This document shows positions 1 to 6,261 of a DNA stretch of 6,261 nucleotides, one piece after another. Source of the stretch: a virus. Below the pieces are notes generated by a model. The model did no database searches and was not told where the DNA came from. It saw only the letters and a program-made list of their open reading frames with translations. Position numbers and translations under genes: made by a program. The stretch spans positions 1-6,261 of IMG/VR virus record IMGVR_UViG_3300020041_000023, one strand, 5' to 3'. Every line of letters begins with the position of its first letter. Position 1 is the stretch's first letter.

Positions 1-121
1 CTCAGGAATTGAAGAATCTTCAGTTTGCTGAACGTCTGTCTGCTGCTCAGGAGACTCAGATTCTTTTGAATTCTGAGGCTCAACGTATATTAAACCGTTA
101 TCTTGATGAACAACAGCAAGC
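1..121. repeat. Terminal redundancy copy 1, a circular-genome assembly overlap identical to 6141..6261
   Basis: Base-by-base comparison shows 1..121 (ctcaggaattgaagaatcttcag...caacagcaagc) equals 6141..6261 exactly. The reading frame of the ORF leaving the window end (codon phase 2 mod 3) matches the ORF entering at position 3 once 6140 is subtracted. Confidence 0.97.
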
Positions 122-584
122 CGACCTCTTTATTAAAGGTCAAACCTTGGTTAATCTTCAATTGAACGGTGCTCTTACGGACAAACAGATTCAGACCGAA
201 ATCCAGCGTGCTATCCTGACGGCTGCCCAGGCCTCTGGTCAAAAGATTTCTAACAATATCGCTGCGAGCACTGCTGACTCTTTGATTAAGGCTTCGAATG
301 CTGCTTATCAGTTACAGTATCGTGACGCCTCTTATGATTCTGCTAATGTTAAATTACGCAAGCATATCGAGTATAATACCGCTAAGGCTCAGCAAAAGCT
401 ATATGAATATGGTGCCGATTTAGCTCGGAAAAAGGGTCGTACCCATTATTGGGAATCTGTCTCGAATGGACTTAGTTCTATTGCTTCTGGTGCTGGTAAT
501 GTTATCGGATCTATGCGTCCTGGTGCCCAGGTTTTCCGTAATGATTATGGTCCTCGTAATACTACTATTTATAACGGTCGGTAA
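3..584 (+). CDS. VP2: DNA pilot / minor capsid protein VP2, C-terminal part. It continues the CDS that starts at 5603 across the circular junction. The TTG 'start' at 9 in the ORF track is an artefact of linearisation.
   Basis: The frame is open from the window edge to TAA at 582..584 and is in phase with 5603..6261 after removing the 6140-nt unit. The sequence is long and Gln/Ala/Leu-rich (AQELKNLQFAERLSAAQETQILLNSEAQRILNRYLDEQQQ...), which looks helical as expected for an H/VP2-type pilot protein. Third codon positions are T-rich. Confidence 0.88.
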   Translation, partial: QELKNLQFAERLSAAQETQILLNSEAQRILNRYLDEQQQADLFIKGQTLVNLQLNGALTDKQIQTEIQRAILTAAQASGQKISNNIAASTADSLIKASNAAYQLQYRDASYDSANVKLRKHIEYNTAKAQQKLYEYGADLARKKGRTHYWESVSNGLSSIASGAGNVIGSMRPGAQVFRNDYGPRNTTIYNGR

Positions 585-603
585 ACTTAATTTTCATCCT
601 TTA

Positions 604-810
604 GGACTAGAAGCCCATCGCGGCGCTTGAGCGATATACACCCGCTGCCCGCGTAGGGCCTGGTCGAAAAATGGAGCGGAGCGACTTCCTTATAGGAGCG
701 CCCCGCTCCGGTATTTTAGCACGGAGTGCGCAAAGGCAAGACAGTCCTGCCTTGCCGTGCCTATACACCCCTGTATACATCCACTTGTTAATTAAGCGAA
801 GCCCCTAGTT
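604..810 (+). other. GC-rich, hairpin-dense non-coding island inside the single large intergenic region (585..992). It is a candidate origin, primosome-assembly site or structured RNA.
   Basis: I counted 100 G+C in 611..780, about 59%, while the rest of the genome is visibly AT/T-rich. There are four consecutive stem-loops. H1 is 613-623/649-659 (GCCC..CGCGG with CCGCG..GGGC, 9 bp with a 2x2 internal loop). H2 is 673-679/703-709 (GGAGCGG/CCGCTCC) and can extend inward to about 14 bp. H3 is 719-724/755-760 (GCACGG/CCGTGC) plus an inner stem 733-738/748-753 (AAGGCA/TGCCTT). H4 is 762-767/772-777 (TATACA cccc TGTATA). A possible closing helix is ACTAG 606-610 with CTAGT 805-809. No ORF here carries the phage codon signature. 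Confidence 0.6.
673..718 (+). terminator. Possible intrinsic terminator downstream of VP2 (hairpin H2 plus a short T tract)
   Basis: A GC-rich stem GGAGCGG...CCGCTCC is followed by ggtaTTTTa. The T tract is only 4 nt and lies 4 nt after the stem, so this is weak. Confidence 0.25.
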
Positions 811-823
811 GTGTCCGAAAGGA

Positions 824-846
824 AATTTGAGTTATCATCTCAAATT
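824..846 (+). other. Perfect 8-bp hairpin AATTTGAG (ttatcat) CTCAAATT in the AT-rich half of the intergenic region
   Basis: The inverted repeat 824-831/839-846 with a 7-nt loop is read directly from the sequence. It is preceded by TCC-GAAA-GGA (814-823), a possible GNRA-type mini-hairpin. Confidence 0.5.
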
Positions 847-889
847 CGGTCTCTCTTGTCTATAAACGCACAACTCACACCCAACTGTA

Positions 890-992
890 GAATAAAAAAA
901 CTCCGAAATATTTTGTTTATTCAAAAATAATGTTTTCCTTTGCCCCTGTAGAAACCAACTCATTAAATTATTAACATTTAAAATTTAGCATT
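890..992 (+). promoter_or_regulatory. AT-rich leader and probable promoter region for the ORF64 - TM27 - M15 - VP4 - VP1 gene string
   Basis: This is the only substantial non-coding stretch upstream of the uninterrupted + strand gene array. It is very AT-rich (A7 run at 894-900). It has only near-matches to Bacteroidota-type elements (TAtTTTG at 909-915, TTTG at 939-942), and no exact consensus was found. Confidence 0.3.
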
Positions 993-1187
993 ATGCAGAA
1001 ATTTATTATCTCTCTTAAAGAAAAACAAACTGGTCGTGATGTTATGCCGCCTTATATTGTCAATTCTCTGGATGGTCTTGGAAATTATTCTGAGCGAGTT
1101 TCTCCGTTGGGTCTTATTGTTATTGTGGATTCAATTAAAGAAGAAGATAGTTTTGTTGAACTTAAAACTCAAAGTGATGAAAAGTAA
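993..1187 (+). CDS. Hypothetical protein, 64 aa, with no recognisable family
   Basis: The ORF runs ATG to TAA. T occupies the third codon position in 37 of 64 codons (hand count), matching the genome-wide coding signature. The overlapping alternative frame has only 8 of 47. It is the first ORF after the intergenic region. Confidence 0.62.
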   Translation: MQKFIISLKEKQTGRDVMPPYIVNSLDGLGNYSERVSPLGLIVIVDSIKEEDSFVELKTQSDEK

Positions 1188-1260
1188 TAATATTTGGAAA
1201 ATTATTATCGGTGCAGTATCTGCTGCTCTTGGTTATATTCTTAATGCTATCGGATTATGA
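1177..1260 (+). CDS. 27-aa single-pass membrane micro-protein (MKSNNIWKIIIGAVSAALGYILNAIGL), a candidate holin-like or membrane-disrupting lysis partner
   Basis: The ATG at 1177 is in the frame of track ORF 1036..1260. There is a short polar/basic N-terminus followed by an uninterrupted hydrophobic stretch of about 20 residues. T is at the third position in 17 of 27 codons, matching genuine genes. Without this ORF, 1188..1256 would be non-coding in a very compact genome. Its stop TGA (1258-1260) overlaps the ATG (1257-1259) of the peptidase as ATGA. Its start overlaps ORF64 by 11 nt. Confidence 0.55.
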   Translation: MKSNNIWKIIIGAVSAALGYILNAIGL

Positions 1261-1565
1261 ATATGTCTCTTATGCTTTTTCTTGATTACTTGTTGTGTTC
1301 TAATGTTCATTTTTCGGTAACTAGTGCAAGGCGTACTCCTGAACAGAATAAGGCTTGTAATGGTGCTCCTAATTCTCAACATTTAACAGGCGAAGCTATT
1401 GATATCAAACCTTACGGTTCTACTAGTTTTAGTAAGCTGCTTGAGATGACTCATGATTATTCTGATCAAATTTCTCCTCATGACCAGCTTATTATTTATC
1501 CTGGTTTTATTCATATTTCCTTTGGTCCGCGTTGTCGTCGCCAGGTGATTGATAAAAGAAAATAA
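1257..1565 (+). CDS. Zinc peptidoglycan peptidase, Peptidase_M15 (M15A/M15_3-like, LAS superfamily), a compact 102-aa endolysin-type enzyme
   Basis: The sequence SARRTPEQNKACNGAPNSQHLTGEAIDI contains the family hallmark SxHxxGxAxD (S40..D49, nt 1374..1403; His42 and Asp49 are the predicted zinc ligands). The C-terminal IIYPGFIHISFG (His86, nt 1512..1514) corresponds to the family's terminal 'fvHvD' block. It is start-coupled to the upstream TM micro-ORF, and its stop lies 2 nt before the VP4 ATG. Confidence 0.85.
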   Translation: MNMSLMLFLDYLLCSNVHFSVTSARRTPEQNKACNGAPNSQHLTGEAIDIKPYGSTSFSKLLEMTHDYSDQISPHDQLIIYPGFIHISFGPRCRRQVIDKRK

Positions 1566-1567
1566 TT

Positions 1568-3403
1568 ATGAAATATACTCCTGATTCACTTAAAGCTGCT
1601 GATCATTGCCAGCATCGTTCTTTTATAACTAATCGTTACACAGGTCAGCGCATTGCTGTAGATTGCGGACAATGTGATTACTGTATTCATAAGCGTGCTC
1701 AAAAAGCGTCCATGCGTGTGAAGACCGCTGGAAGTGCTTTCCAGTATTCTTATTTTGTAACTCTTACTTATGATAATGAGCATATTCCTTTGATGAATTG
1801 TGAGGTTCTGGATAGTGAGTATCAAGATGCTTTAAGTATTTCAGGAGATAAAGTTTTTGGTTATGAACGTCATTCTTATATCCCTGTTTCTGACTATCAA
1901 CCTGAGGATTCTTCCCTTTTGCGTCATATATTCTTCACGCAAGTTCAAGGCACAGTGCCGTTTGACCGTGAAATCAAGGAATATGTTTCTGTTAAGGACA
2001 ATTGGTTTCTTAGTATGGATGCTATTCGTAGTTTTATCCGTAAAACGCAGGCCGTTGACAATTCAGTATATCCCGTTGCTGAAAAATACGGTGTTGATAA
2101 CCTTATACCCTTTCTGAATTATGTTGATGTTCAGAACTATATTAAACGCTTACGTAAATATTTATATAAAGTTTTAGGTTCTTATGAAACGTTACACTTC
2201 TACGCTGTGGGTGAATACGGACCAGTCCATTTCCGCCCGCATTATCATATCTTATTATTCACTAACTCGAAAGAAGTCTCAGAGGTATTACGACAGTGTC
2301 ATGATAAGAGTTGGAAGCTCGGTCGTTCAGATTTCCAGGTTGCCCGCGGTGGAGCTTCATCATACGTTGCGAGTTACGTTAACAGCCTTAGCTCTGCTCC
2401 CTTGTTATATCGGTCATGCCGCGCATTCAAGCCCCGACAAAGAGCGTCTCTTGGATTTTTTGAAAAAGGCGAGGTTTTTGAGGAAGGTGAGGACGTCTAT
2501 CACGCGATTGAACAAAAGATCGATTCTGTCGTTAATGGACGAGTCTATAACTTCAACGGGATTAGTGTTAAATCAACTCCCCCCATGTCGTATATACGTA
2601 CCTTACTCCCCCGATTCTCAAGTGCTCGCTATGACGATGCTGTTGCGATTGCTAGAATTATTCGTGCTGTTGCAGATGCGCCAAAAAGAATTGCAAGGTT
2701 CGGTATTATAGATTATGATTCCGGTTCTATCCTTTCTATTGTTCGTGCTTATTATCAGTATCTTACATTGAATCATCACCTAACCAATGAAGACGAAATT
2801 GTATTACATAGTGCTCGGTGCCTTACTAGGCTCTGTAACTGTTCTTCTGATGTCGATATTGAATCTTATCTTAATAAGTTGTATCGGTTATTCCTTTATG
2901 TCAGCAAGTTCCTTAGGAATTGGCATCTGCCTCCCATCGGTGGCAATCTTGATTCTTATGCCAATCGTATTAATTTTATCATCAAAACCGGAATAGAATA
3001 TGAAAAGAAAGCCGATTATGTACGAATGTGTGATGCGCTCCGAATTCAAGAAACATGTGAATTCCCTTTATTGCGATATTTTTATTTACCAGCCTCAGGA
3101 TGTGAAGTGTCGACCGTTAAGGAGGAGGAAGACGGAACATTTTCCACGTACACTATTCGAGACAGAATGGCAGGAATCAAGCCGCTCGTCTTACATTTTG
3201 ATGACCCCCGAAAATTATTACTTTCCCCAGCTCTTTCTCGTTTGGTCGGACCATCCTTTAAAGCCTCGCAACCTGCAAATTACAACGATTTGTGCGACGA
3301 CTTACAAAGGTGTTTGGATAGCCGTTCATCGAAATACTGTCGCGATATGATTAAGCATAAGAAATTGAATGATGCAAACAATATATTTAACCGTATGGTT
3401 TAA
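1568..3403 (+). CDS. VP4: Rolling-circle replication initiator VP4 (HUH endonuclease, phiX174 gpA-like), 611 aa
   Basis: There is an N-terminal CGQCDYC cysteine cluster (aa 33-39). Motif I is FVTLTY (aa 63-68, nt 1754..1771). The HUH motif is HFRPHYHILLF (aa 221-231, nt 2228..2260). The double-tyrosine motif YVASYVNS (aa 266-273, nt 2363..2386) is almost identical to the phiX174 gpA active-site YVAKYVNK. Confidence 0.95.
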   Translation: MKYTPDSLKAADHCQHRSFITNRYTGQRIAVDCGQCDYCIHKRAQKASMRVKTAGSAFQYSYFVTLTYDNEHIPLMNCEVLDSEYQDALSISGDKVFGYERHSYIPVSDYQPEDSSLLRHIFFTQVQGTVPFDREIKEYVSVKDNWFLSMDAIRSFIRKTQAVDNSVYPVAEKYGVDNLIPFLNYVDVQNYIKRLRKYLYKVLGSYETLHFYAVGEYGPVHFRPHYHILLFTNSKEVSEVLRQCHDKSWKLGRSDFQVARGGASSYVASYVNSLSSAPLLYRSCRAFKPRQRASLGFFEKGEVFEEGEDVYHAIEQKIDSVVNGRVYNFNGISVKSTPPMSYIRTLLPRFSSARYDDAVAIARIIRAVADAPKRIARFGIIDYDSGSILSIVRAYYQYLTLNHHLTNEDEIVLHSARCLTRLCNCSSDVDIESYLNKLYRLFLYVSKFLRNWHLPPIGGNLDSYANRINFIIKTGIEYEKKADYVRMCDALRIQETCEFPLLRYFYLPASGCEVSTVKEEEDGTFSTYTIRDRMAGIKPLVLHFDDPRKLLLSPALSRLVGPSFKASQPANYNDLCDDLQRCLDSRSSKYCRDMIKHKKLNDANNIFNRMV

Positions 3404-3424
3404 AAATTTTAATTATTAACTATT

Positions 3425-5149
3425 ATGAGTGATTTTAATCCGCTAGACCGAGCGAAAGTTGCCGTGCATCGCTCTTCCTTTGACTTGTCTAGTAAAAAAT
3501 TGTTTACGGCAAAAGTTGGAGAGATTCTTCCTTGTTATTGGCAGATTGCTATTCCTGGTAACAAGTATCGTATTTCTTCTGATTGGTTTACTCGTACTGT
3601 TCCTGTTAATACGGCCGCATATACTCGTATTAAAGAGTATTATGACTTTTACGCTGTGCCGTTACGTTTGATTTCTCGTGCGCTTCCGCAGGCGTTTACT
3701 CAAATGACGGATTATATGACGTCTGCCGCTAGTAATACAGCTAACACCGAGATGTTGACTTCTGTACCGAATACTACTTTGAACCTGTTGTCTCTGAGTC
3801 TTCAAACGATCAGTGGACATGATGTCTTAGATGATGCCGGTCTTCCTTATGTTTATGGTGCTTCTAAGTTATTAGACATGCTTGGATATGGTTCTTTCCT
3901 TCATTCTACTAATACAGCTAAATCCATCATTACTCAGGCTTATCTAGGTAAAGATATGGATAATGATACTTATAACCCTTTGGTTTACAGTGTTAGTCAG
4001 ACTGTAAATCTTCTTCCGTTGTTGGCTTATCAGAAGATCTACTACGATTTCTTCTCTGAATCTCAATGGGAAAAGCACTTGGCTTATTCTTACAATGTTG
4101 ATTATTGGGACGGTAAATCTCAATTGAATCTTGCTTCTGAGATGCTTCAGCTGCGTTATGCTAATTATCCGAAAGACTACTTTATGGGTATGCTTCCTGC
4201 TAGTCAGTATGGTGCGGTTGCTGTTTTCCCGTCTATTTATATGCCTGAAGCTTCTTCTAATTCTGTCGTCGCTGTTGGTAATCCTAATGTGGACTATGTT
4301 GTTAATCCTGCTTCTTCTAGTACTGTCTCTACTTCTGGTGCGTTCACCTCTAAGCGTAATGTTACTATTAATTCCGATTTATCCGCCCTTTCAATCCGTG
4401 CAACAGAGTACCTACAGCGTTGGAAAGAAGTAGTTCAGTTCTCTAGTAAGGATTATTCAGATCAGATGGCAGCCCAGTTTGGTATTAAAGCCCCCGAATA
4501 CATGGGTAATCATTCTCATTATATTGGAGGTTGGTCTAATGTAATCAATATCAATGAAGTTCTCAATACCAACCTTGAAGCGGCTGATTCTCAAGCCGTA
4601 GTCGCTGGTAAAGGTGTTGGCTCTGCTTCTGGCCATATATTGACTTATGATTGTGGTGCCGAACATCAGGTGATTATGTGTGTATACCATGCTGTGCCTA
4701 TGGTTGATTGGAATCTGACTGGCCAGAATCCTCAGTTGACTGTTACGGCTATTACTGACTTCCCCCAACCTGCGTTCGACCAGCTGGGTATGCAGCCTGT
4801 CCCTGCTCTGAATCTTCATAACAACCCGTCTCGTTCTGTTTCTGGATCTATCGGTTATAATCTTCGCTACTGGCCATGGAAGACTAATATTGATACTGTT
4901 CATGCTGCGTTCCGTTCTGGTATGGCGTATCAGTCTTGGGCTGCTCCTATTGATGGTTGGGATGTTCTCACCTCTTCTGGTGCTTGGTCTTATCAGTCAA
5001 TGAAAGTTCGTCCTCAGCAATTGAATTCTATTTTTGTTCCTCAGGTTTCTGGAGAAAACTGTTCTGTTGCATTTGACCAGCTGTTGTGTAATGTCAATTT
5101 CCAAGTTTATGCTGTTCAGAACTTGGATAGAAATGGTTTACCTTATTAA
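3425..5149 (+). CDS. VP1: Major capsid protein VP1 (Microviridae F-protein family), 574 aa
   Basis: The N-terminal region HRSSFDLSSKKLFTAKVGEILPCYWQIAIPGNKY...YYDFYAVPLRLISR matches the conserved gokushovirus/phiX F-protein N-terminus (RSSFD..., ...G.L.P....LPGD..., ...FFVPLRLIW). The size, T3 codon bias and position after VP4 all fit. Confidence 0.96.
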   Translation: MSDFNPLDRAKVAVHRSSFDLSSKKLFTAKVGEILPCYWQIAIPGNKYRISSDWFTRTVPVNTAAYTRIKEYYDFYAVPLRLISRALPQAFTQMTDYMTSAASNTANTEMLTSVPNTTLNLLSLSLQTISGHDVLDDAGLPYVYGASKLLDMLGYGSFLHSTNTAKSIITQAYLGKDMDNDTYNPLVYSVSQTVNLLPLLAYQKIYYDFFSESQWEKHLAYSYNVDYWDGKSQLNLASEMLQLRYANYPKDYFMGMLPASQYGAVAVFPSIYMPEASSNSVVAVGNPNVDYVVNPASSSTVSTSGAFTSKRNVTINSDLSALSIRATEYLQRWKEVVQFSSKDYSDQMAAQFGIKAPEYMGNHSHYIGGWSNVININEVLNTNLEAADSQAVVAGKGVGSASGHILTYDCGAEHQVIMCVYHAVPMVDWNLTGQNPQLTVTAITDFPQPAFDQLGMQPVPALNLHNNPSRSVSGSIGYNLRYWPWKTNIDTVHAAFRSGMAYQSWAAPIDGWDVLTSSGAWSYQSMKVRPQQLNSIFVPQVSGENCSVAFDQLLCNVNFQVYAVQNLDRNGLPY

Positions 5150-5159
5150 TGTATTGATT

Positions 5160-5603
5160 ATGAGAAGTTTTGCGTATAAAAATGAGAATTTTGAAAAGAA
5201 TTCGTATGTTCCTGTGTTGAAGGAAGGCAATCCGTGTTATCAGGCTTCTGTTTATGATTCGGTTATGTATGACGAGACTCCTGATGGTGACTTGATTCAA
5301 TGCGATATGACCCAGATCCTTTTGAATCAGGAAAAGTACCGTCGTTTGCTTGGTGATATGAACGTCAATAATATCCTTGCTCAAATGCATCCTACTCAAT
5401 CTACTGTGATGGACGGTATGACAGACGAGGAACGATTTAAATGTGTTATATCCCGTCATTGCCAGACAATGTCTGAACGTCAGGCTGTATTGTCTGAATT
5501 GGCGTCTCAACATTCTGAGTTGTCTAAGTTCGCTGAGTCTATGTTGGCAGAGCAAAGTGCAGAGCCCGCTCCTGATGCGTCCGCCACTGCACCTAGTGCT
5601 TAA
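5160..5603 (+). CDS. Hypothetical 147-aa acidic protein between VP1 and VP2, possibly an internal scaffolding (VP3-like) protein
   Basis: The ATG at 5160 is the first start after the VP1 stop (5147..5149). The upstream part of track ORF 5034..5603 overlaps VP1 and is an artefact. The stop TAA (5601..5603) overlaps the VP2 ATG (5603..5605) as TAATG. The protein is acidic and looks helical, with a low-complexity tail AEQSAEPAPDASATAPSA. I recognise no family motif. Confidence 0.6.
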   Translation: MRSFAYKNENFEKNSYVPVLKEGNPCYQASVYDSVMYDETPDGDLIQCDMTQILLNQEKYRRLLGDMNVNNILAQMHPTQSTVMDGMTDEERFKCVISRHCQTMSERQAVLSELASQHSELSKFAESMLAEQSAEPAPDASATAPSA

Positions 5604-6261
5604 TGGGTCTATTTGATGCTATCGCCTCCACTGTCGGTAATCTTACCGACAATGTGATAGGCATGGTTAACCAAAATCATCAGAATAAGGTTAACCTCCG
5701 TATGATGCGTGAGCAGAATTCGTTTAATGCTGAGCAAGCTCAGCTTCAGCGTGATTGGCAAGAAGATATGTGGGATAAGAATAATGCTTACAATTCTCCG
5801 GATGCTATGATTTCCCGTGGCTTGAATCCATTTGTTCAAGGTTCTGCCGCTATGGCTGGCTCTAAATCTCCCGCCTCTGGCGGTGCTGCCGCTACAGCCG
5901 CCCCTGTTCCATCTATGCAGGCTTTTAGGCCTAATTTTTCCAACGTCTTTAATAGTTTGGCTTCCCTCGCTCAAGCGAAAAAAGCACAATCAGAATCTAA
6001 TAATATTGATGCTATTACTCCTCAGATTGCTAACTATTATAAAGGTATGACAAATTGGAAGAATCTGGCTATCGGTGAGTCTGGCTATTGGAATAAGGAT
6101 ACTGGTCGTATCTCTGCTTCTTTGGATCAGTCTACAGAAGCTCAGGAATTGAAGAATCTTCAGTTTGCTGAACGTCTGTCTGCTGCTCAGGAGACTCAGA
6201 TTCTTTTGAATTCTGAGGCTCAACGTATATTAAACCGTTATCTTGATGAACAACAGCAAGC
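5603..6261 (+). CDS. VP2: DNA pilot / minor capsid protein VP2, N-terminal part. It has no stop in the window and continues at position 3 after circular wrap-around. The full CDS is 1122 nt, 373 aa.
   Basis: I translated it by hand with no stop codon: MGLFDAIASTVGNLTDNVIGMVNQNHQNKVNLRMMREQNSFNAEQAQLQRDWQEDMWDKNNAYNSPDAMISRGLNPF... The block N.FNAEQAQ..RDWQE.M....AY.....M...GLNP (nt 5717..5830) is the conserved signature of gokushovirus-type VP2 proteins. The ORF is missing from the supplied track only because it runs off the window end. Confidence 0.9.
   Translation, partial: MGLFDAIASTVGNLTDNVIGMVNQNHQNKVNLRMMREQNSFNAEQAQLQRDWQEDMWDKNNAYNSPDAMISRGLNPFVQGSAAMAGSKSPASGGAAATAAPVPSMQAFRPNFSNVFNSLASLAQAKKAQSESNNIDAITPQIANYYKGMTNWKNLAIGESGYWNKDTGRISASLDQSTEAQELKNLQFAERLSAAQETQILLNSEAQRILNRYLDEQQQ
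6141..6261. repeat. Terminal redundancy copy 2, identical to 1..121
   Basis: Exact 121/121 identity with the window start. It lies inside the VP2 coding sequence. Confidence 0.97.

Follow-up and report, generated by a model that had tools for sequence, protein, structure and literature searches.

The 6,261-nt stretch of DNA examined here (hereafter the window) spans positions 1 to 6,261 of the IMG/VR virus record IMGVR_UViG_3300020041_000023 and is a circular microvirus genome of 6140 nt with 121 nt of terminal redundancy, its first 121 bases recurring at the end. The sole large non-coding gap of this genome (585–992) carries a conserved, folded element of ~280 nt (~604–884) that is made up of two modules. 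The 3′ module (786–884) is its ancestral, indispensable core, and the 5′ module (604–785) is a clade-specific accessory. Comparison with related genomes establishes the structure, folding strand, conservation, position and modularity of the element; a function in priming is what we infer. Our favoured reading, held with moderate confidence, is that the element is a complementary-strand (minus-strand) origin, that is, a single-strand initiation signal acting as folded single-stranded DNA (ssDNA) of the + strand. A first-pass annotation had singled out a GC-rich island at 604–810 and put forward an ssDNA priming site as its leading hypothesis. That hypothesis is still the best-supported reading, without being demonstrated, and the evidence for it falls mainly on the 3′ module, most of which lies outside the reported island. 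The island itself is real, but its GC-rich part is mostly a clade-specific addition, and the conserved folded block extends well past 810.

Conservation and covariation of the two modules

The sequence of the gap was found by blastn in 35 phage records, where it is conserved at least as well as the surrounding genomes; the nearest database records are faecal microviruses of lemurs, dogs and humans. Two exact-motif scans of IMG/VR yielded 115 distinct full-length copies, all in ~6 kb contigs. The more than 115 distinct homologues are all microvirus genomes, and all carry the element at the same position. The alignment used for counting (A2) comprises 86 copies, 72 of them mutually <93% identical. 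The search motifs corresponded to 634–655 and 862–880, and invariance within these segments is partly so by construction. In a separate alignment of 52 genomes, identity to the window is 0.92 at 604–671, 0.90 at 672–718, 0.81 at 719–785 and 0.86 at 786–884, compared with 0.49–0.66 at the third codon positions of VP1 to VP4, which indicates a constraint stronger than that at synonymous sites. The 19 bases that follow the stop codon of the VP2 (DNA pilot protein) gene are poorly conserved (0.35 identity).

Helices were derived from compensatory changes rather than from energy, and were then counted. Across the 86 homologues, 97.9% of cells are paired at the 66 proposed pairs, against 27–49% once the partners are displaced by 1 to 3 columns. 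Double-sided changes are present in 23 of the 66 pairs compared with 10.7 in column shuffles, and none of 500 shuffles reached 23. Compensatory changes among related microviruses are found throughout the supported helices, each of which contains at least one double change, and the substitutions there lack three-base periodicity.

The compositional description in the first-pass annotation was accurate. The GC content of 611–780 is 58.8%, compared with 40.7% for the genome and 24% for the remaining gap; GAGCG occurs four times (629, 674, 679 and 696); and 585–992 is the only large intergenic region. The + strand, folded as DNA, is more stable than dinucleotide shuffles (z = −3.7 for 600–815, −5.25 for 585–992 and −4.5 for 604–785). 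The z-scores are negative for RNA parameters (z = −3.1) and for the opposite strand too, so that energy alone can tell neither the strand nor the molecule.

The 3′ module (786–884, + strand) is a three-way junction and forms the family-wide core. Of 143 sources, most of them more distant microvirus genomes, 110 gave a match to the covariance model R1, at capsid identities down to ~37%; for the 33 sources without a match at E ≤ 1, divergence, an incomplete contig or true loss are all possible. All 110 distant copies lie on the VP1 (coding) strand, at a median of 1914 nt past the end of VP1, which is to say in the post-VP2 gap. Across this distant set, 18 of 20 pairs are double-changed and 98.3% of cells are paired, figures that lean towards structure because the family alignment was fitted to the covariance model. 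The minimum-energy DNA fold reproduces the three-way junction (z = −2.7).

Near the 5′ end of this module lies the mini-hairpin GCGAAGC (796–802), which has two pairs and a GAA triloop and whose further variants across the family are ACGAAGT, GTGAAAC, ATGAAAT and GCGTAGC. In the family-wide set, G-C forms its outer pair 57 times and A-T 25 times; the closing pair is found 66 times as C-G and 13 times as T-A. The junction is closed by helix H5 (807–814:868–875), in which three pairs are double-changed within the clade and six of eight across the family. Hairpin H6 (815–822; CCGAAAGG in the window) has the form N-C-G-N-A-G-N′ and, in most relatives, a GAA, GGA or GTA triloop. Its C-GNA-G triloop is present in ~72 of the 86 homologues, its outer pair 815:822 is G-C in 47, C-G in 31 and A-T in 6, and across the family it reads CCCGAAGGG, TCCGGAGGA or CCTGAAAGG. 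Hairpin H7 (824–846) combines an 8-pair stem with the conserved loop TTATCAT, and its pairs are double-changed at six of eight positions within the clade and at all eight across the family. The conserved tract CTTGTCTATAAACG (855–868) is unpaired in the junction from 855 to 867, and its last base, G868, belongs to the 3′ strand of H5; the CTTGTC of this tract is kept across the wider family.

The orientation of the stem pair in H6 (CCG..GG or GCG..GC) is correlated with the bases after H7 (847–850; TTCGG or TTCTCC), which may stem from a tertiary contact or simply from common descent. A candidate tertiary pair, 815:848, was rejected, being broken in about nine sequences.

The 5′ module (604–785, + strand) is restricted to the clade of the window. 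Profile hidden Markov models of it matched only one of 142 more distant genomes, itself a member of that clade, and six complete genomes (L129, L134, L141, L146, L152 and mar56 (L206)) lack 604–785 and retain 786–884. The four tandem hairpins and closing helix previously drawn for the island were half right: H2 and H3 hold, the long H1 does not, the closing helix lacks support, and H4 is dispensable. The long H1 (613–659) is also the minimum-energy pairing, but it does no better than column shuffles and is broken wherever its columns vary. The corrected H1 pairs 617–621 with 631–635 around a 9-nt loop, and its pair 620:632 is G-C in 67, A-T in 12 and C-G in 5 homologues, with 100% of cells paired. 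It runs into the conserved box GATATACACC (633–642), which is unpaired beyond 635 and near-invariant, yet was part of the search pattern. This box holds the first copy of TATACAC, which occurs in the genome at 635 and 762 only. Two short stems, S1 (643–645:651–653) and S2 (647–650:656–659), then cross each other in a pseudoknot-like arrangement that is backed by covariation with all cells paired (643:653 is C-G in 77, T-A in 5 and G-C in 4; 650:656 is C-G in 82 and T-A in 4; 648:658 is C-G in 84 and G-C in 2).

Hairpin H2 (672–710) has 15 pairs, contains GCGGAGC (676–682) in its 5′ arm and is followed by the T-rich tract GGTATTTTA to 718, which gives it a terminator-like appearance. Compensatory changes among the 86 homologues support it (679:703 is often G·T, besides G-C in 73 and A-T in 4), as they do H3 (719–729 plus 730–760), which resolves into H3a (719–722:726–729, loop GGA; 721:727 is A-T in 67 and G-C in 19) and H3b (730–732:758–760 plus 735–740:751–756; 739:752 is G-C in 44, G·T in 23 and A-T in 16). 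The second box CCTATACACC and hairpin H4 (762–767:772–777) together occupy 761–777. CCTATAC is invariant there, but H4 has lost its 3′ arm in 9 of the 86 homologues. As for the closing helix (606–610/805–809), it is compatible with the sequence but shows zero double changes, and its 3′ strand overlaps the well-supported helix 807–814:868–875. In the 86-copy alignment, on an uncounted reading, G610 is replaced by A in a large share of homologues, opposite a near-invariant C805. A long-range pairing of 673–683 with 796–804 proposed by RNAalifold was also rejected: its columns, all invariant, say nothing for it, and it would compete for bases with H2 and the mini-hairpin, both of which are supported.

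The boundary between the modules (782–786) is a variable insertion point. About 20 relatives (including L011, L017, L048, L050 and L052) carry a ~35-nt hairpin (CCTAGATCTATTAGTAATGGATCTAGG) there, a 23-nt hairpin unit stands three times in tandem in L073, and an insert of ~140 nt is common to L018 and L146. More distant clades have TATAC(A)CC-like boxes upstream of the 3′ module, and some possess GC-rich, hairpin-rich stretches of their own between the VP2 terminator and the 3′ module (L201:3440–3650, L202:3440–3790, L204:3700–3870 and L205:3600–3780). These stretches contain extra C-GAA-G mini-hairpins (GCCGAAGGC, GCGCGAAGCGC and GGCGAAGCC) together with a TATAC(A)CC box, and they seem to be lineage-specific counterparts of the 5′ module.

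A putative complementary-strand origin on the + strand

The paired columns of the 86 homologues contain 328 G·T cells but only 45 A·C cells. This asymmetry indicates that it is the + strand that folds, since folding of the minus strand would reverse the ratio. In Microviridae, the virion strand has the sense of mRNA, and the folding strand is therefore either the virion DNA strand or, equally, sense RNA. DNA rather than RNA is presumably the active form, and the mini-hairpins are among the observations in favour. The d(GCGNAGC) mini-hairpins melt at 70–76 °C and r(GCGAAAGC) at 39 °C, and the DNA mini-hairpin forms with GNA loops only (Kimoto and Hirao 2026, PMC13037366). GNA-type motifs are found at the complementary-strand origins of G4, St-1 and alpha3, in ssiA of RSF1010 (CCGAAGG) and in the N4 virion-polymerase promoters (PMC13037366). 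In the family described here, stems of just 2–3 pairs at 796–802 and in H6 retain a GNA triloop with a closing C-G or T-A pair throughout, to capsid identities of ~37%, and in 23 homologues H6 is CCGAAGG, the very heptamer of RSF1010 ssiA. Sites of the form N-C-GNA-G-N′ number five on the + strand of the genome, three of them in the island, and none on the minus strand. Besides 796–802 and 815–822, where it is conserved with covariation, the motif occurs at 676–682 and 721–727. The values for mini-hairpin stability and exclusion of single-stranded DNA-binding protein (SSB) are those of PMC13037366.

If the element is a complementary-strand origin, host SSB would coat the + strand genome after injection, except for the very stable hairpins of this region. 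Those that would stay folded are the two GNA-triloop mini-hairpins and H5 to H7, along with H1, the crossing stems, H2 and H3. The 3′ module would then present a fixed three-dimensional landmark, built from the mini-hairpin, H6, the TTAYC loop of H7 and the unpaired CTTGTC tract, at which the priming machinery of the host (probably a member of the Bacteroidota) would start the complementary strand. Primase, a PriA-type primosome and RNA polymerase are all candidates for this machinery, and the sequence cannot choose among them. Priming would lead to conversion of the ssDNA into the replicative double-stranded form. The 5′ module would add further stable structure, and its H2 would probably also act, as RNA, as the terminator of the upstream operon. 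Every microvirus should possess a hairpin that serves as complementary-strand origin, and for other clades such hairpins have been predicted (PMC9865509). VP4, the replication initiator, ranges from 62 to 96% identity among genomes whose elements differ little, which suggests a slowly evolving host partner.

Several points weigh against this assignment. Priming is inferred from sequence, and neither the priming enzyme nor the start site can be named. As the + strand is also mRNA-sense, covariation cannot separate DNA from RNA. The G·T pairs are frequent, being the majority state at four pairs, and such pairs are more usual in RNA; the crossing stems at 643–659 likewise resemble an RNA-style pseudoknot. 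Most of the reported island consists of the 5′ module, which some complete genomes do without and whose role is the least certain. Conservation is inflated at the two search motifs. Transcription of the VP2 message probably continues at least through 585–718, so that H2 would lie at the 3′ end of that message, and the argument that the spacer beyond is untranscribed rests on the promoter result described below plus eleven relatives and the window inspected by eye.

Flanking transcription signals and competing explanations

H2 and its T-tract were flagged as terminator-like by a consensus scan, and as RNA they probably also form the terminator of the upstream capsid/pilot-protein operon. A hairpin with a T-run was seen between the VP2 stop codon and the 3′ module in ~9 of 12 genomes inspected by eye, the window included. 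Such a structure follows the VP2 stop codon in L129, L134, L141 and L152, which have no 5′ module. It is a plain hairpin in these genomes except in L129, where H2 itself stands after the stop codon and is followed by TTTTTT. Systematic terminator scans upstream of the 3′ module returned 37 vs 31 hits at a setting that was too permissive and 3 vs 0 at one that was too strict, and neither was informative.

Downstream of the 3′ module, a run of seven A (894–900, + strand) corresponds to 6 to ~13 A at or near this place in most, but not all, homologues. It is followed by a Bacteroidota-type promoter of the downstream operon (912–942, + strand), which consists of a −33 TTTG (912–915), a 19-nt spacer and a −7 box TTCCTTTG (935–942); in relatives the −7 box is TATCTTTG, TACATTTG or TATATTTG. 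The consensus of Bacteroides promoters is TTTG at −33 and TAnnTTTG at −7. Among 104 distant genomes, 70 have TAnnTTTG in the 200 nt that follow the 3′ module, compared with 10 of 104 control stretches, and this enrichment of a Bacteroides-type −7 box across the family points to Bacteroidota hosts. Lying between a hairpin with a T-run and the next promoter, the 3′ module should occupy the least transcribed spot in the genome.

These signals bear on the alternative that has survived best, namely that the element is a structured RNA. It would be either the 3′ end of the VP2 message or a transcript of its own, with a non-coding, cis-regulatory or stabilising role, in which the crossing stems form a true pseudoknot and H2 is an intrinsic terminator. 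The folding strand has the sense of mRNA, G·U-type pairs are abundant, covariation backs the crossing stems, H2 with its U-rich tract is terminator-like, and the RNA fold is itself better than shuffled controls, as noted above. GC-rich islands in AT-rich genomes are also a classic sign of structured RNA. The most conserved module, however, sits past the terminator-like hairpin and before the next promoter, and GNA triloops on stems of 2–3 pairs, very stable in DNA, are weak in RNA (PMC13037366). A simple sigma-70-type scan, whose consensus does not cover Bacteroidota-type promoters, found no + strand promoter upstream of the element, and a 6-kb phage has scant room for a 280-nt RNA gene without a protein partner. 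Against the 4227 covariance models of Rfam, the whole window gave no match at the gathering threshold; this was reckoned against an RNA as no match even at E = 10, the best sub-threshold value of an E-value scan of 500–1100 being E = 2. Neither a tRNA nor a tmRNA was detected. On balance we consider an RNA function unlikely, while still giving it some weight.

That the element is or contains a plus-strand (rolling-circle) origin, at which VP4 would bind and nick, for example at one of the conserved TATACAC boxes beside the hairpins, and which might also couple replication to packaging, appears rather improbable. The two invariant boxes GATATACACC and CCTATACACC are located within hairpins or next to them, and similar boxes precede the 3′ module in the distant clades. 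Rolling-circle origins often present their nick site on a hairpin, and in filamentous phages both origins share one intergenic region. Known microvirus plus origins, as in phiX174, are by contrast ~30 nt long, unstructured and located inside the replication gene. The genomes that lack the 5′ module, and hence both boxes, nevertheless have VP4 proteins within the normal range (65–84% identity vs 62–96%), and no link was found between the presence of this module and the type of replication protein; the 3′ module, being universal, is of no help in this comparison. The element varies little while VP4 diverges widely, and a near-invariant stretch within VP4 (2849–2878), where synonymous sites are constrained, offers an alternative candidate. 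The RNA and plus-origin alternatives, both of which the first-pass annotation had listed, are weakened, though each keeps some probability.

Attachment sites recognised by XerC/XerD-type recombinases, perhaps as folded ssDNA in the manner of the CTX phage, are a far less probable explanation. Related proviruses of Bacteroidetes microviruses have been reported as apparently integrated at dif-like sites, and the figure legends of that study place the integration sites in the equivalent intergenic region (PMC3091885). In the window, however, no dif-like site exceeds chance: with the general bacterial consensus and E. coli dif as the only queries, the best match genome-wide is 21/28 and lies outside the gap, compared with a shuffle mean of maxima of 21.3. 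No integrated copy came up when a 20-base motif of the element was looked for in 185,579 species genomes, and a 28-bp site (two 11-bp arms and a 6-bp spacer) cannot account for ~280 nt of covarying helices.

That the element is nothing special (a recent host fragment, a small protein gene or a chance fluctuation in GC content) can be dismissed with near certainty, as the more than 115 distinct homologues are all microviral and share one position, even though open reading frames (ORFs) of 45 and 57 codons overlap the island and "hypothetical proteins" are annotated over it in some GenBank records. A protein-coding reading was rejected for both strands: the start codon of the + strand ORF (671–673) is ACG in 39 of the 86 homologues (T672 to C) and its frames are unconserved, while the start of the minus-strand ORF lies in a segment deleted in nine homologues. 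A host origin fared no better, and the description of the island as foreign, or as a recently acquired host fragment, is unsupported. The exact 20-base motif was matched in the 185,579 species genomes only by one chance occurrence, in a coding stretch judged by eye to be pyrH-like on a GC-rich Bacteroidaceae contig, and by one microvirus contig binned into a metagenome-assembled genome (MAG). Among 72,556 plasmids, blastn found no match to the element.

All long ORFs of the window are on the + strand, and their gene names were taken from the annotation of relatives. The gap begins after the VP2 stop codon (582–584). The first gene beyond it is a 64-codon ORF (993–1187), followed by a peptidase (1257–1565), the replication initiator VP4 (1568–3403), the major capsid protein VP1 (3425–5149) and an ORF (5160–5603) at the position of the "internal scaffolding protein" gene of distant relatives. 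The ORF at 993–1187 is the most conserved gene at the nucleotide level, third positions included (0.87, 0.94 and 0.83 by codon position), which suggests an extra constraint such as an overlapping ORF (1036–1260) or a cis signal.

Within VP4, four stretches (2849–2878, 2633–2662, 2231–2260 and 2000–2029) have third codon positions conserved at 0.92–0.96, against a gene mean of 0.66. At 2849–2878 the window reads ATCTTAATAA, and most relatives read GATGTCGATATTGAATCTTATATTAATAAG, which contains ATATTAATAA, a motif that we take to be the core of the phiX174 plus origin. In the distant genomes this core shows no enrichment (11 forward vs 11 reverse occurrences). The invariant stretches may mark a plus-strand origin within the gene or overprinted genes, the ORFs 2184–2711, 2787–2996 and 3000–3350 overlapping in this part of VP4.

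Three GenBank records carry a "hypothetical protein" coding sequence over the element or its flanks (L001:658–984, PP511392; L003:994–1290, OP549867; and L201:3581–3784, PP511330). The covariation and the unconserved reading frames suggest that such calls over the element are spurious. A complete-looking microvirus contig with the element (L157; JBDRIH010000083.1, 6238 nt) is filed in a "Candidatus Omnitrophota" MAG, probably through misbinning and not as a sign of the host. Two IMG/VR contigs of ~21 kb share a type I-C-looking CRISPR array (L142:11835–13050 and L148:5488–6700) with at least 19 repeats of GTCACACCCTACGTGGGTGTGTGGATTGAAAC. One of its spacers, 34 nt long, is identical over its first 26 bases to the 3′ module of relatives (CTTGTCTATAAACGTTGAACTCACAC...), the match beginning inside the 855–868 tract. 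Compared with L019, it has three mismatches overall, and TTC precedes the protospacer. This array could identify the host.

Relation to known initiation signals

The closest analogues of the proposed complementary-strand origin are the DnaG primase-dependent origins of G4, St-1, alpha3 and phiK, which likewise lie between genes of a microvirus (the F-G intergenic region). These origins act as folded ssDNA of the + strand, in which a set of neighbouring hairpins escapes SSB, and the element shares their kind of GNA/GNNA mini-hairpin motif (GCGAAAGC in G4; PMC13037366). Their size is comparable (~140 nt, against a core of ~100 nt). They differ in architecture (three tandem hairpins, against a three-way junction with a separate mini-hairpin) and in host (Enterobacteria, against probably Bacteroidota). 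No sequence similarity turned up in a blastn search of a phage collection that returned only relatives of the window and in which no G4 sequence was compared directly. The element is not assigned to the G4-type primase origin family.

The role proposed for the element is also that of the phiX174 primosome assembly site, an ssDNA hairpin in the F-G intergenic region that starts the complementary strand. That site, however, consists of one ~55-nt PriA recognition element and has no homology to the one described here. The ssiA and ssiB signals of RSF1010 and the plasmid origins ssoA, ssoT, ssoU and ssoW are comparable in being strand- and orientation-specific folded ssDNA of 40–300 nt with conserved loops that priming enzymes of the host or the plasmid recognise; the mini-hairpin CCGAAGG of ssiA is the H6 heptamer of the 23 homologues mentioned above. 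No homology links these plasmid signals to the element, which had no blastn match among plasmids. The sso signals have conserved motifs of their own, RSB and CS-6.

In the filamentous Ff phages (M13, f1 and fd), a single large non-coding region with several hairpins (minus origin, plus origin and packaging signal) extends from a terminator to a promoter, as does the gap of the window. Ff phages belong to another virus family without homology to the element, and their minus origin mimics a sigma-70 promoter, a mimicry that is not demonstrable here. A further precedent comes from other Microviridae clades, the reekeekee- and roodoodooviruses, for which intergenic DNA hairpins with compensatory substitutions were computed and proposed, without certification, as complementary-strand origins (PMC9865509). 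Those hairpins are one or two simple structures of 13–64 nt in tiny genomes, whereas the element has multiple helices, two modules and much deeper comparative support.

No prior description of the element was found in Rfam or in the literature searched, a search that left most subscription journals outside. As a folded ssDNA initiation signal it is of a kind already known; what is new is the family, with its architecture and the range of gut microviruses that it covers. Its boundaries, its covariation-backed structure and its mutational targets (the GNA loops, H5 to H7 and CTTGTC) make ssDNA priming directly testable. The element also serves as a sensitive marker with which to find and orient such genomes, its covariance model working at 37% capsid identity. 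Several "hypothetical proteins" in the databases are argued to be spurious on its account, and at least one host CRISPR array targets it.

Microviruses of the type represented by the window are among the commonest DNA phages of mammalian guts, and their hosts are probably Bacteroidota. A more speculative proposal, which we advance tentatively, is that the element, with its three-way junction and pseudoknot-like module, represents a new class of complex nucleic-acid fold and recruits the replication or transcription machinery of Bacteroidota in an undescribed way. It might, for example, be a phylum-specific ssDNA promoter or a primase-loading platform, or act as an origin in its DNA form and as a terminator and 3′ structure in its RNA form. 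If so, it would be the first defined replication signal of these abundant gut microviruses and would provide a handle on priming in Bacteroidota.

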